64,000 bases of DNA from Octopus sinensis. Taxonomy: Eukaryota. The stretch lies in the NCBI RefSeq assembly GCF_006345805.1, contig NC_042998.1:99138001-99202000 (forward strand), written 5' to 3'. How positions within the stretch are numbered: the stretch's first letter is position 1; each line of letters opens with the position of its first letter. A model generated the notes under the pieces. It was not told the origin of the DNA and searched no databases. It worked only from the letters and a program-made list of their open reading frames with translations. A program made the position numbers and the translations under genes. Shown here in pieces: positions 45,791 to 60,056 of this stretch.

Positions 45791-45958
45791 ATATCTATTT
45801 ATATATATATATATACTTCAAATAGAGGTCATAATAAATTCATGAAGGGATGGTATCATCCAAAGAAATACTGGTTCAATACCTAATATTTTTGTGAGGG
45901 AGGTTAATATCCATAAAATAATAGGTTTATATATAAATGATGGTTTATAATCATGCAA

Positions 45959-46304
45959 ATGAATAATAAGAAAATGGAGATATTGAAGTTAATATGAGTT
46001 TATTATCAGCAAAAAAATTTATCATTATCCCTTATAGCTGTTTCAATTAAGCTCAGTGAAATTTAATAAGTATTAAAATCATATTTCTGAGCTTAATCTT
46101 ATACTGCCATGATGATTCAAATAACTAACATATAAAATATCTAAGGGTATATTCTTCCTCCCTCTGAAGAGATTAAGCTCAGAAATATGATTTTAATACT
46201 CATTAAATTTCACTGAGTTTAATTGAAACAGCTGTAAGGGATAATGATCGATTTTTTGCTTATAATAAATTCTTATTTACTTCAATATCTCAATTTTCTT
46301 ATTA

Positions 46305-46308
<4 letters not shown>
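45959..46308. repeat. Inverted repeat (arms about 45959-46100 and 46170-46308), Penelope pLTR-like
   Basis: Arms are reverse complements; bracketed by (TA)n. Confidence 0.9.
46159..46241 (+). ncRNA. Type I hammerhead ribozyme motif
   Basis: tccct-CTGAAGA-[gattaagctcag...ctgagtttaatt]-GAAA-cagctg-TA-aggga; GUA site after 46236. Confidence 0.82.
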
Positions 46309-46401
<93 letters not shown>

Positions 46402-46634
46402 TATATATACAAATATCATTATTTCTAATTCTCTCTAAAGGAGACTATGGCAGTAGTATTGGATATTAATAGTTATCGCCAAGCTAACATGGCAGTCCAG
46501 AAAAATAGGACGAATGCTGCCGTTGTTTAGCTCCAAGAGGCCATCGCCTCTAGCTAGCTATGTGACACACAAACCTGTGTCCATTTTAACCTTTGAAAAG
46601 GGGAGATCAGCAGCTTACCCTTGCTGGTCTGGCA

Positions 46635-46677
46635 TCCACAGACTAGTTTCAAGGTGGTTGCTTCTTATCAATGTGGA
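46635..46677 (-). ncRNA. Minimal type I hammerhead motif, U3-A8 variant
   Basis: tccaca-TTGATAA-gaagcaaccacctt-GAAA-ctag-TC-tgtgga. Confidence 0.72.
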
Positions 46678-46828
46678 GTGGCCTAACCCAGCAGGCGTCG
46701 CTGCTGACCGACTGTTCAAAGGATTATTTACCTAAATTCAGTGGAATACATCCACTGGTTTTTACTGAATTTAGGTAAATAATTCTTCGAACAGTCGGTC
46801 AGCAGTGACGCCTGATGGGTTCGGCTAC

Positions 46829-46871
46829 TCCACATTGATAAGAAGCAACCACCTCAAAACTAGTCTGTGGA
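46829..46871 (+). ncRNA. Minimal type I hammerhead motif, U3-A8 variant, G12 mutated
   Basis: tccaca-TTGATAA-gaagcaaccacctc-AAAA-ctag-TC-tgtgga. Confidence 0.62.
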
Positions 46872-48341
46872 TGCCAGACCAGCAAGGGTAAGCTGCTGAC
46901 CTCCCCTGTTCGAAGGTTATAATGGACACAGGTTTGTGTGTCACATAGCTAGCTAGAGGCAATGGCCTCTTGGAGCTAATCAACGGCAGCATTCGTCCTA
47001 TTCTTATGGATGGATGGGTGGATATAAATATAAATATAGATATCTTTTAAATTTGTTTGTGGAAAATGTTTTGAATATGCAAATAAAGCTCCTATTAGCC
47101 TTCATACTGGTCAAAAAGGATAAGCATCCCTCTGCTGTACATCCATTAATGCTATATCACCTGAAGAAATGGATCACTGAAGATGATCAACCTGATACCA
47201 ATGGATACTACGAACTACACTGTTATCATCCTAGGAATACAGACTATGATCTTAAGAGTTGTGATTTGTGGAAACACACATAGCGATGCATTAAATGTTT
47301 ATAAATTCTATCCAAGGATTATGTGTGTGTGTGTGTGTGTTTTATATAGTTATATGATGTTTGTGGTATTTTTATAATTTTGTTACTGTTTATTATGTTC
47401 AGCATTTATTTATATGTTTATTATGTTCAGCATTTATTTATATGTTTATTATGTTCAGTTTATTATGTCCAGCCTCACTGGAAATTTACAGATTGTGCAT
47501 CCATACTGAAAGCTCTCCCTGTTCCTCTGCCTTAATAATTGTTATTAACAAAGAAAAACAAAACCAAAATATTGAGAGGAGGCTTTGAACTAACAATGTT
47601 CAAAATTGGAAGAAATATTACAAAGCATTTTGTTCAACACTCTAACAATTCTTCCAGTCTACCACCCTTCATAACAGTCTTAATAATGGCAATTTTTAAG
47701 TCCAAATCAACATGGATGCATTATTAATTAACCAAATACTGTGATATTCACCTTGAGAGGTCCTCTCATATAGACACATGATGCATAAAAGCACAGACAT
47801 AGTGTAGCAGATGAAAATCATATAGTATAGATACCAGGACTGCTAGATCACAGGATTTCAGCATACTGCACTTCTTCAGTGGTACATACTGGTGACCACA
47901 TATCAACCAAATTTCTCTGCCAACAATATATAGAGTAATAGCATCTTTCAGCCACTAGTTTTGCAAATAGCCAGTTGGCTTATTAAAAAATAATCATTTG
48001 CAAAGGAAGCAAATACTATGTGTTTTTATGAATCTCTCACAACAAATACTGCAGTATTTGGTGTTCTAACAAGACTTCCACTTTAAGTTGGATTTAAAGA
48101 TAGTCTTTTAATACTAATACTTCTTCTATTACTAATAATTTTTTCTAATATCTTAATGATATATAATTTTTCATGAAACTTTATGTAGATATGTTTTTGG
48201 GTATGTGGATGAACTCACATTGATGAAATTATTTGCTTTTTTGGGGGGGGGGGATGGTTATTTACCTTCTTAACCATTCAATGACTTTCTGCATGACATA
48301 AAAACCTATGATATTATTCCAGTAGATATTATTCTCTACTA

Positions 48342-56939: not shown

Positions 56940-57155
56940 CCCATGCTTGTGCCACATAAAAGCCCTCATGCCAGTGCCATGTAAAAATCACCCAGCACAC
57001 TGTAAAGTGGTTGGTGTTAGGAAGCGCATCCAGCCATAGAGACCATACCAAATCAAACCTGGAACTTGGTGCAGCTCTCTTGTTTGCCAGCTCTGGTCAA
57101 ACCATCCAACTCATGCCAGCCTGGAAAATGGACGTTAAAGAACGATGATATTGAT
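56940..57155 (+). mobile_element. RTE LINE 3' end
   Basis: CATGCCAGCCTGGAAAATGGACGTTAAA..GATGAT. Confidence 0.8.
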
Positions 57156-57339
57156 ATATATATATATATATATATATACTCTTTTACTCTTTCACTTGCC
57201 TTTAGTTGAGCAAATTGACCCCAGGACTTATTCTTTGTAAGCCTAGTACTTATTCTATTGGTCTCTTTTGCTGAACCGCTAAGTTACGGGGACGTAAACA
57301 TACCAACATCAAGTGATGTTGGGGGGACAAACATAAACA

Positions 57340-58701
57340 CACACACCTATACATATATATATATATGGACACATAGGTGTGGAGACCTGTATATTTCAGG
57401 AGTTACACGTACCCTTGCGTGGAAGTATGTACCTGCGTAGGTGCACACACATTAGTGCACGCGCGTGTATATGCGTATATGGGCATATATGTGCATATGA
57501 GTATGTCCATGTGTGTGCGTGTAGTGGTGGGTGTATATACACGTTTGTATGGATGTGTACATAGGTATATATATGTGTGTGTATATGTATATGTGTGTAT
57601 GTTTGTACACTTATGTGTATGTGTGTGTATGTATATGTGTATGTATACATGTATATACATTTCTAGTACCTCTTTGTTCAAGTGCATAAGGATACATATG
57701 CACGTGTGTGGACATGTGAATGGGTATACCTGTTTCTGTGCATGTGGGGATATATGTACATATGTCTATGTTCTTGAATCTGGGTGTGTTTATATATATG
57801 CATTTATGTGCACTCGTGCATGCGTGAGGACGGGTGTATGTATGCATATATAAACAGGTGTGTGTACACATGAACTTGAATGAACCTCTATGGATGCATA
57901 CATGTCGATGTATGCATGTGTTTGCTTGTGTATGGGTTTCATGGAATATGTGTACACATGTACTTATACATATGTATATGTATACATATACATGCGTGTG
58001 TGTGTATGTGTACTGTATATATGGGTGTAAGGATGGGTATATATATGTATATATATATATATATATTATATGTATATATAGATATGTGTGTGTGTGTATG
58101 CGTATGTATACATGCCCGTGTGTGTATCTATGTGTGTGGGTATATATATATTTTTTTAGTTGGGGGGGGATGTATGTGTGAGTGTACATAGTCTGGCGCA
58201 ACATGGTAAATTCCATTGTCTCGACCACGGTCGAACAATGATGATGATGATGATATATATGCGTATATGCATATGTGTGTATATGCATAGAGATTTGCTT
58301 ACTTATGTATGTGTGTATGTACGTGTGTGTGCATAGGTACGTATGTGCGTGGGTTCTTATACCTAGCTGCATGCACATTTTTCCATGTGTGTATATGCGT
58401 ACCTATATGTTTGTGTATGTATGTGTATATTGAGATATATATGTATGTACGTATATGAGTATGTATATGTGCGGGCACGTATATATGTATGTGTGTGTAT
58501 GTATTTGTATGTATATGGATATGTGTGCAGATGTATGGGTGTGCGTATATATATATGTATTTAGTTTGGGTATCTGTGTGTAGCGGTATGTATGTATATG
58601 TGTATATCCGTGGCGGTACTATTATACATGTGTATATATATGTGTGCGTGTGTATATATATATGCATGCATATGTGTGTGTGTGGACGTGTATATGTATG
58701 T

Positions 58702-58742
<41 letters not shown>
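57340..58742. repeat. About 1.4-kb degenerate alternating purine/pyrimidine (TA/TG/CA) tract
   Basis: Direct inspection. Confidence 0.9.
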
Positions 58743-58746
<4 letters not shown>

Positions 58747-59145
58747 TTGATTGATAATAACACGGGGGGGGGGCAGACGTTTTTTATGAGAAAATAGATA
58801 AGTTTATAGACACACACCAACTTGGAGCAGACAACTTAAACTGACCATCCGCCTTCTATCATACAGCTCCCCAGATAATTAAGTTTTAATTTATGACACT
58901 CACTAATACATCCTAAAGCTTCATCCTCAACCGGCATATATTTTTTTCTGTATCTCCTTATTCTTACCTTACTTTATCCTTATGTCCACTTTTTAAAAAA
59001 ATTTTTATCCCTTTATATTTTTTTTTTCGCTTCTTTATCTTTATTTATTTATATTTCCATGTTATTTTTCACGGCTACACTGTCACAATACAGCTCTAGA
59101 GCTCTAGACCAGACACACGACATCCTTTGTATCTTTATATACTTA

Positions 59146-59515
59146 CTAGCAGTATCGCCCGGCGTTGCTCAGGTTTGTAAGGGAAATAACTATAAAGCAT
59201 TTTTAGAGAGTTATAGCCAAAGAATAGCAAAAAAATGGAAAAAAATGATGGTAAATTTTTTAGGTGGAGTTGCGTCCCCTACACAGTTTGTGGTTTGTGT
59301 TCCTGATTCTCAACCCCATGTCGAATTTATCGATTTTTTTCAGAACTGGGAGAACTTTTCAAAATTTTCACTGCGTTAGTTTTGAATTATGACATTGGGC
59401 TATGTGTGTGTCAAGTTTCATCAGAATCGGTTGAAAGCCGTGGTCAGGGTGAGGGTACAAGCAAACAGACACACAGAAACACGCACAGACAAACTGCCGT
59501 TTATATAGAGAGAGA
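59146..59515 (-). mobile_element. Non-autonomous Helitron
   Basis: Minus strand A|TCTCTCTCTATATAAAC..(GTCT/GTGT repeats)..GC-rich subterminal segment GAGCAACGCCGGGCGATACTG-CTAG|T. Confidence 0.8.
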
Positions 59516-60056
59516 TTTTTTTACATTTTTACTCTTTTTTTACCATTTTACTCTTTTATTACATTTTGCACTTACTATTATCCTGTATAATAATGTTTAG
59601 ATTTATACATATACTTTTTCCTCTTTGTGATCCCAAATTCATTAAAGATTCACCCCCTCCCACTCCTTCCCTCTTTATCTCAACATCCAACCTCCTCATT
59701 CTATATCCAGTGAAAAAACGGTATGGACGTTTTGTTTTGGTGTCTCGCTTTGCCATATACAACTATGAGGATTTGCATTCCCAACGAAGAAACTCATCTC
59801 TTTCCCAAACTTCTTCTCAAACCTGCTATAATGTAATACATGTCTTTAGTGTGGTAATTGTGCATGGCTGAAGAAGGCTATTGACATACATGTTACATCA
59901 ATTATGCATTGATATAAACTGTCCAATAAAGCCATAAACATATGTACCGCTAAATCCATTGCATCCTGTTTTTCTTTTGATAAATATACCCTATCACCTA
60001 CACCACTAACTGGCATATACAGGTGCTTACAGTTATCAAGTATTCACCCTGAATTT

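Follow-up and report, generated by a model that had tools for sequence, protein, structure and literature searches.

Within a 64,000-nt stretch of Octopus sinensis DNA (hereafter the window; contig NC_042998.1, positions 99,138,001 to 99,202,000), an animal sequence rich in microsatellites and decayed transposons, we studied the region 45820-59950, which holds four short inverted repeats, named E1, E2, E3 and E4, most of which have hammerhead ribozyme motifs in their arms. The locus raises the question of whether these hairpins are mobile RNAs in their own right or scars left by the insertion of something else. Our answer, to which we assign a probability of about 80%, is that each hairpin is made of two head-to-head arms of one repeat, which the enzyme of a Penelope-like element (PLE) likely inserted at an AT-rich position in one event, and that it is likely an insertion scar and not a mobile RNA. 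Arms end at different, family-fixed 3' positions that lie 33-34 nt apart (both positions in the E3 family, the long end in the E2 family), and 5' ends vary (E2). An earlier note on this DNA had proposed mobilisation by Penelope-type machinery; the fixed 3' ends, the tails, the AT-rich targets and the E3 duplication support that proposal.

Shared anatomy of the inverted repeats

Self-comparison of the window recovered the inverted arms of all four elements, which shows that the hairpins are real; the arm pairs are 88-93.5% identical within each element, and no second copy of E1, E2, E3 or E4 was found within the 64 kb. In 36 cross-element arm alignments, 34 were matched by at least 13 of 200 shuffles, and the other two (E1 right arm against E2 in each case) were matched by 1 of 200, which is borderline after 36 tests; we did not accept homology between E1 and E2. 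No pair of elements is convincingly related in sequence, in agreement with the earlier note. The start of the E1 loop (46103-46127) and the E2 tail (46465-46496, minus strand) have a 9-mer and a nearby 7-mer in common, with the borderline shuffle result just given (1 of 200, 36 tests); either template switching or a tail motif common to both elements could account for it.

Inverted pseudo-long terminal repeats with a 30-40-bp tail occur in PLE insertions (PMC8557442, PMC3846280). The elements of this locus have the same layout: the arms lie head to head with an inverted, 5'-truncated copy at the 5' end, and all four elements have extra sequence (the tail) past one arm only. A one-sided 30-40-nt tail between two fixed 3' ends was found for both ends of E3 and, family-wide, for the long end of E2; tail evidence for E1, E4 and the short end of E2 comes from this locus only. 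A type I hammerhead lies near the 3' end, in degenerate form in E4, and targets are AT-rich or (TA)n with variable duplication. The earlier note placed most elements in or beside (TA)n; E3 does not adjoin such a run.

E3, an abundant family with two fixed ends

Family evidence was drawn from assembled contigs of public sequencing runs, aligned to E2 and E3 only. For E3 we used runs X2, X15, X13 and X16, with 24 of 567 loose-end rows examined; the alignment skipped 56246-56317 (the first 72 letters, loop included) as repeat. The features of E3 at this locus are as follows.

56088..56099, plus strand: left copy of the 12-bp target-site duplication (direct repeat)
56100..56245, minus strand: left arm (short end), with a minimal hammerhead at 56191-56146
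56246..56308, plus strand: loop, with a B-box-like 12-mer at 56251-56262 and then an (AAC/AAT)n run
56309..56489, plus strand: right arm and tail, with a decayed hammerhead and a 33-34-nt tail at 56457-56489
56490..56501, plus strand: right copy of the 12-bp target-site duplication (direct repeat)

The aligned arms (56101-56245 and 56309-56453) are 88% identical; the left arm reaches only as far as the short end, and the right arm extends to the long one. Across the family, loose ends fell at 56456 in 218, 141, 12 and 12 contigs of the four runs, and at 56489/56490 in 292 (X2) and 237 (X15) contigs or at 56490 in 13 (X13) and 11 (X16); the flanks past these ends are AT-rich and unrelated to each other (agreement 0.40-0.49). 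The duplicated 12-mer, which has one further occurrence elsewhere in the window, sits exactly outside both family ends. Because the two ends are framed by this duplication, we conclude that the whole hairpin arrived in one event.

The E3 family is very abundant, with a summed depth of up to 4.7 million (X2) as compared to 59 on the unique flank, a figure that is not a copy number. Two runs guessed to be RNA yielded 1001 and 570 contigs with E3 pieces that have the same ends and unrelated flanks, from which no strand, level or discrete RNA is inferable. None of the metagenome, prokaryote-genome or viral contigs searched contained a 22-nt E3 pattern.

The left-arm hammerhead of E3 has an extra A after A9, an ACGU stem III, a GUU site and a G12A change, and the right-arm hammerhead, altered at several core positions, does not pass the descriptor introduced below. 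With the majority letters across the contigs, the minimal hammerhead is intact again: it keeps the GUU site and the additional A behind A9, and its ACGU stem III has two pairs. The family majority has a CpG at the G12A position, so decay of a methylated C is its likely cause.

The E3 loop probably belongs to the right arm, as its longer 5' part. Its 12-mer is identical to the B-box of a repeat at 10386-10397 that resembles a short interspersed nuclear element (SINE). A looser B-box pattern occurs 10 times in the window as compared to 2.0 expected; this excess probably reflects SINEs, and one match in a 63-nt loop is therefore suggestive only. ARAGORN gave no match, and the A-box region of E3 is truncated in this copy. 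The SINE-like hammerhead repeats Sm-alpha and Sj-alpha of schistosomes have an RNA polymerase III (Pol III) promoter. These repeats (cited in PMC8490949) are a possible model for E3 if its B-box belongs to a tRNA-type promoter.

E2, a head-to-tail non-coding unit

46412..46763, minus strand: left arm, covering 351-352 nt out of ~361 nt in a full unit
46635..46677, minus strand: type I hammerhead with a U3-A8 core (46671-46665) and a predicted cut between 46641 and 46640
46764..47010, plus strand: right arm, ending 33-34 nt short of the family long end, with a G12A change in its hammerhead

The aligned E2 arms (46496-46742 and 46764-47010) are 93.5% identical, and the left arm also contains a 21-nt loop, a 33-nt tail (46463-46495) and 51 nt past the usual end of the family. 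We aligned 2929, 4008, 2669 and 2111 contigs from runs X1, X2, X3 and X15, respectively, and examined 15 of 67 joint rows, 24 of 838 loose-end rows and 40 of 152 difference rows; the joint table gives no orientation for each joint. The long end of the family, past which the flanks are TA-rich, lies at 46463/4 in runs X1-X3 (72, 90 and 60 contigs) and at 46463 in run X15 (41 contigs).

Only one joint among those examined occurred in multiple contigs: it leads from 46762 to 46412, with ~10 letters in between, in 7, 6, 3 and 0 contigs (X1, X2, X3 and X15). In addition, loose ends behind 46762 in 27, 36 and 20 contigs read into the start of the E2 unit again. What lies upstream of the E2 arm in the contigs is another E2 unit, with no coding sequence for a reverse transcriptase (RT) and endonuclease. 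A unit length of ~361 nt places this short non-coding head-to-tail repeat within the 150-450 bp range of retrozymes; in contigs, a circle junction is identical to a tandem DNA junction. The existence of a dedicated non-coding family, one of the possibilities raised by the earlier note, is thus supported for E2.

The same note asked whether hairpin copies share fixed ends and spacers. For E2, the long 3' end is fixed, but the inversion points differ from copy to copy: all seven opposite-strand joints among the rows examined lie at different places (46442/46611, 46497/46655, 46498/46563, 46514/46722, 46536/46636, 46583/46730 and 46626/46661), each in one contig per run and with the depth of a single copy. 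An eighth inversion point (46763/46742) is the one at this locus. The mobile unit of E2 is one arm's worth of sequence, arranged head to tail, and not the hairpin.

Each E2 unit has one type I hammerhead, with a 6-bp stem I, a 4-bp stem II in which one pair is broken in this copy, and a CUAG stem III; none of the contigs listed spans two E2 ribozymes. Positions 46663 and 46652 of stem II co-vary across the family (35/43, 27/37, 29/31 and 88/81 percent of depth in the four runs), the family majority letters mend the pair broken here, and positions 46675 and 46637 of stem I are both changed in the majority of X15. The U3-A8 core appears to be family-wide, based on both arms and on the lack of any change there among the difference rows examined. 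Taken together, the paired stem changes and the differing joints indicate a non-coding head-to-tail family with a maintained ribozyme and no fixed hairpin centre. E2 is a retrozyme-like unit, neither a fixed hairpin nor the stub of a coding element. Another candidate for the ribozyme core, a CTG-TGG-like box that lies 23 nt upstream of the E2 core, was dismissed, as no stem I forms with it.

E4 and truncation of coding elements

50300..50444, minus strand: left arm (50354-50444) and one-sided tail of ~43-54 nt, in (TA)n, without a hammerhead
50445..50500, no strand: small palindrome at the inversion junction, read from the sequence
50478..50783, plus strand: remnant of a C-terminal GIY-YIG endonuclease with one internal stop
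51153..51186, plus strand: degenerate hammerhead-like motif with both core boxes and imperfect stems I and III, which fails the descriptor
51197..51287, plus strand: right arm (short 3' end), based on the arm alignment

The E4 arms (50354-50444 and 51197-51287) are 92% identical. The left arm starts downstream of its hammerhead-like motif, and E4 has at most one such motif. The reported GIY-YIG remnant is genuine: a search identified 76 peptide relatives (best E 4e-19), and the longest relatives inspected have RT-region sequence upstream, as judged by eye. Two of six tested relatives gave weak Pfam GIY-YIG matches; the E4 peptide itself had no Pfam match, and a word-based protein search was also empty. 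E4 retains the endonuclease remnant only, the RT having been lost by truncation. The motifs of the nearest relatives resemble, by eye, the Nematis rows in supplementary Fig. S2 of PMC8557442; Nematis is recognised by a C-terminal endonuclease with CCHH and a short CX2-5CxxC linker, and this linker is missing in E4 itself. By motif inspection, the E4 remnant appears Nematis-like. Past the E4 stop, a second hammerhead-like core box with a short hairpin lies at 50814-50845 (plus strand); it is without an intact GAAA, and its fold is no better than shuffles.

E4 is an ordinary truncated, inverted PLE, and it serves as an internal control, as it has the outer architecture of E1-E3 but a coding body. 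All four hairpins might likewise be extreme 5' truncations of autonomous coding PLEs, with no non-autonomous family involved, and truncation with inversion is typical of PLEs (PMC8557442). This explanation holds for E4 and may apply to E1 and E3. It does not suit E2, whose arm is preceded by another E2 unit and not by coding sequence, and E1-E3 have no open reading frame (ORF) of at least 90 aa with recognisable homology (one 92-aa frame over E2 was not searched). The earlier note took differing inversion points together with links to autonomous PLE 3' ends as the mark of ordinary truncation products; E4 has such a link, and E2 does not. As an account of all four elements, we therefore consider coding-element truncation unlikely.

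Hammerhead motifs, E1 and the viroid-like reading

We searched the window with a descriptor for type I hammerheads (C3-G8 or U3-A8, an optional extra base after A9 and a self-complementary stem III) that was composed after the motifs had already been seen; a stricter version misses the U3-A8 core and the extra A. Background came from 60 block-wise shuffles for the descriptor and 200 shuffles for folding. The whole window has two intact-core matches, in the E1 right arm (plus strand, 46164-46236) and the E2 left arm (minus strand, 46671-46641), as compared to a shuffle mean of 0.02 in 45820-59950, where none of the 60 shuffles reached 2. Allowing one core mismatch gave 5 matches in that region (0.6 expected; 0 of 60 shuffles), one of which, at 59362, lies outside E1-E4. 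The outward-facing hammerheads described for the left (minus-strand) and right (plus-strand) arms of E1-E3 are thus above chance as motifs, but only two of the six arms have an intact core, and the other four cores are broken or missing. Among 145 Rfam matches at E<=10, there was no hammerhead family.

Within E1, the features are the following.

45930..45958, minus strand: one-sided tail, ~23-29 nt past the right-arm end, with a boundary blurred by TA (sequence only)
45959..46099, minus strand: left arm, with its 5' part missing up to the base of stem II
46100..46309, plus strand: right arm, including a 70-nt loop that is the longer 5' part of this arm
46159..46241, plus strand: intact type I hammerhead, with core 46164-46170 and a predicted cut after 46236
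46310..46409, no strand: (TA)n run separating E1 from E2, read from the sequence

The E1 arms (45959-46099 and 46170-46309) are 92% identical. The right-arm hammerhead has a 5-bp stem I, a 12-bp stem II, GAAA and a palindromic stem III, and its fold (z -3.5) was matched by 0 of 200 shuffles. In the left arm, the hammerhead is cut inside the core: the first core bases are gone, and the stem III palindrome is mutated. Between a TA run and E1 lie 110 nt (45817-45927) with a B-box-like motif at 45874; this stretch may belong to the E1 unit or form a short repeat of its own. For six other short stretches with motifs, folded in isolation, 24-146 of 200 shuffles did as well. A solitary degenerate hammerhead-like motif with a candidate palindromic stem III and no inverted partner occurs at 59860-59950 (plus strand); as a hammerhead, the motif at 59868-59945 was not confirmed, as it is not a hairpin, lacks GAAA and has a fold equalled by 89 of 200 shuffles.

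The earlier note also suggested dedicated families of rod-like RNAs able to cut themselves in either polarity, in a retrozyme- or viroid-like arrangement. In its bold form, this reading has the entire hairpin RNA multiply as one unit, in the manner of viroids. Formally, both strands carry a hammerhead, and in the rod-like folds of the complete elements 78-87% of bases are paired; in addition, the E3 junctions lie outside the visible part, and E1 evidence is limited to the locus. However, the variable inversion points contradict a fixed hairpin for E2, and by rolling-circle reasoning a single ribozyme per strand cannot release a unit-length monomer. Because the motifs face outward, the antisense arm is made first in a read-through transcript, so that the complement of the ribozyme precedes the ribozyme in any such RNA. 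In the whole E1-E3 hairpins, the ribozyme stems have a pairing probability of 0.0, and forcing stems I and II costs 74, 76 and 58 kcal/mol, as compared to 0.6, 6.5 and 0.6 kcal/mol in single arms. The arms also differ by 6-12%, and four of six carry the damaged or absent cores noted above. Avsunviroidae and other viroid-like RNAs share with these elements a hammerhead readable on both strands and a rod-like fold; here, by contrast, the hammerhead appears on both polarities because of inverted duplication, there is no unit-length release, and the ribozyme is predicted to be sequestered. We found no unit of constant extent in which a ribozyme could fold in both polarities. Given the variable E2 junctions and the buried ribozymes, cleavage in both polarities is unsupported, and we regard the viroid-like explanation as very improbable.

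Least probable of all is an origin as miniature inverted-repeat transposable elements (MITEs), DNA transposons with long terminal inverted repeats inserted at TA, which would suit short, ORF-less sequences with inverted termini at TA-rich sites but not the asymmetric ends with a tail, variable centres, 12-bp E3 duplication, head-to-tail units and covarying ribozymes.

Proposed route of insertion

In vitro, the purified protein of a Poseidon element cleaves AT-rich DNA on both strands and begins reverse transcription at two internal sites, which delimit the tail (PMC11167929). By analogy with this in vitro work, insertion scars such as those described here would begin with an RT/GIY-YIG protein that cuts both strands of AT-rich DNA, and reverse transcription would start at two sites within the RNA, one on each side of the tail. 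Each cut end would prime one cDNA, both cDNAs would stop early, and a short palindrome or microhomology would then serve to link the two head to head. An alternative route to a head-to-head scar would be self-priming on an antisense template (PMC3846280). The template would be a coding PLE for E4; for E2, it would be the protein-free ~361-nt head-to-tail unit, with one hammerhead each, copied in trans; and for E1 and E3, PLE terminal repeats or non-autonomous derivatives, the latter being known from Chlamys (PMC8557442). The hammerhead would act earlier, as a dimer that cuts same-polarity multimeric precursors (PMC4209133); insertion by Poseidon in vitro needs no hammerhead cleavage (PMC11167929). 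In the hairpin copies, pairing between the two arms is predicted to trap the hammerhead, which is decaying.

Several points weigh against this reading. Family evidence covers E2 and E3, whereas E1 and E4 are read from the locus only, and no autonomous partner element was found for E1-E3. The E2 short end is seen at this locus only, with none among the loose-end rows examined, and the head-to-tail joint is absent from the X15 listing. The two-start model leaves unexplained the part of the E2 left arm at 46412-46462, which runs 51 nt past the usual end and makes the arm almost exactly one unit. The variable E2 centres come from 15 of 67 joint rows, and short-read contigs can break at the centre of a perfect palindrome. 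Inversion points of E3 are mostly outside the aligned part, and coverage is high up to that edge, so a preferred upstream junction is possible. Finally, the data are contigs, which show no ribozyme cleavage, transcript end or circle.

Relation to known systems

Inverted copies, tails, opposite-strand hammerhead pairs, U3-A8, the extra base, palindromic stem III and mollusc retrozymes are already published. PLE insertions with an endonuclease share head-to-head arms, 5' truncation, a 30-40-nt tail, (TA)n or AT-rich targets and junction palindromes with the elements described here; rotifer copies have 8-10-bp duplications as compared to 12 bp at E3, and there is no ORF between the arms of E1-E3. 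PLE hammerheads occur as pairs on opposite strands, 100-700 bp apart, and have U3-A8 covariation, an extra base between 9 and 10.1, a palindromic stem III and predicted dimer activity (Cervera and de la Pena 2014, PMC4209133). The metazoan PLE minimal type I hammerheads of that paper thus resemble those of this locus in opposite-strand pairing, U3-A8, extra base and stem III. In PMC4209133, however, U3-A8 is reported for a minimal Schistosoma PLE motif, whereas in E2 it occurs with canonical stems (6 and 4 bp) within a short tandem unit, and the 12-bp stem II of E1 is unusually long.

E2 resembles metazoan non-LTR (long terminal repeat) retrozymes as a non-coding, 361-nt, head-to-tail repeat with one type I hammerhead per unit; mussel retrozyme units are 350-390 bp (PMC7229834). 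It differs in having dispersed PLE-style ends, whereas a preprint (bioRxiv 10.64898/2026.07.22.740005) favours local tandem amplification of retrozymes. The available text of PMC7229834 and of that preprint describes no inverted insertions or tails for retrozymes, and we found no PLE-style inverted insertions of animal retrozymes, or these families, in a literature search that did not cover subscription journals or Repbase.

The preferred reading, insertion by a PLE enzyme, removes the viroid-like one and places the hairpins in a known class. In the available literature, the link between retrozymes and PLEs has so far been supported by co-occurrence and phylogeny; E2 adds sequence-level evidence, in its fixed end, tail and variable inversion, that a retrozyme-like unit inserts as PLEs do. 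The two fixed ends name candidate RNA sites for the start of PLE reverse transcription. Such hairpins are easily mistaken for MITEs, and double-stranded RNA likely arises from them.

A more far-reaching version is tentative, and we think it more probably wrong than right: E2 might be a retrozyme (U3-A8) whose circular or multimeric RNA is copied starting from each end of a single cut in the DNA. E3, which ranks among the genome's most abundant repeats, might be a SINE that combines a Pol III (tRNA-type) promoter and a hammerhead with ends of the PLE type. The two would then be different kinds of protein-free RNA that parasitise Penelope-type enzymes. If E3 has a Pol III head, SINE parasitism would extend to PLEs; the literature listings returned no description of a SINE partnered by a PLE instead of a long interspersed nuclear element (LINE).

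Neighbouring repeats in the window

An older, heavily broken PLE at 43000-44700 (plus strand) has RT-like sequence and, after it, a region with a long-linker CxxC and GIY-YIG (frame 44191-44616); it appears Neptune-like by eye, and Pfam gave one unrelated weak match for the 44191 frame. A decayed DNA transposon with terminal inverted repeats lies at 48341-49605, which we take to be mariner-like from its transposase motifs. An older fold-back at 52753-53030 (69% self-match) and a second partial copy at 63056-63184 are without a hammerhead match. A SINE-like repeat forms a head-to-tail dimer at 54021-54727 and a short inverted pair at 53387-53509. At 62820-62926 (minus strand), a copy resembling U6 small nuclear RNA with many changes (Rfam, 84 bits) is probably a retropseudogene. 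A LINE remnant at 39536-42980 (plus strand), RTE-like by eye, has a 601-aa AP-endonuclease/RT frame, and partial copies of it lie at 3800-6900, 13950-15270 and 36620-37230.

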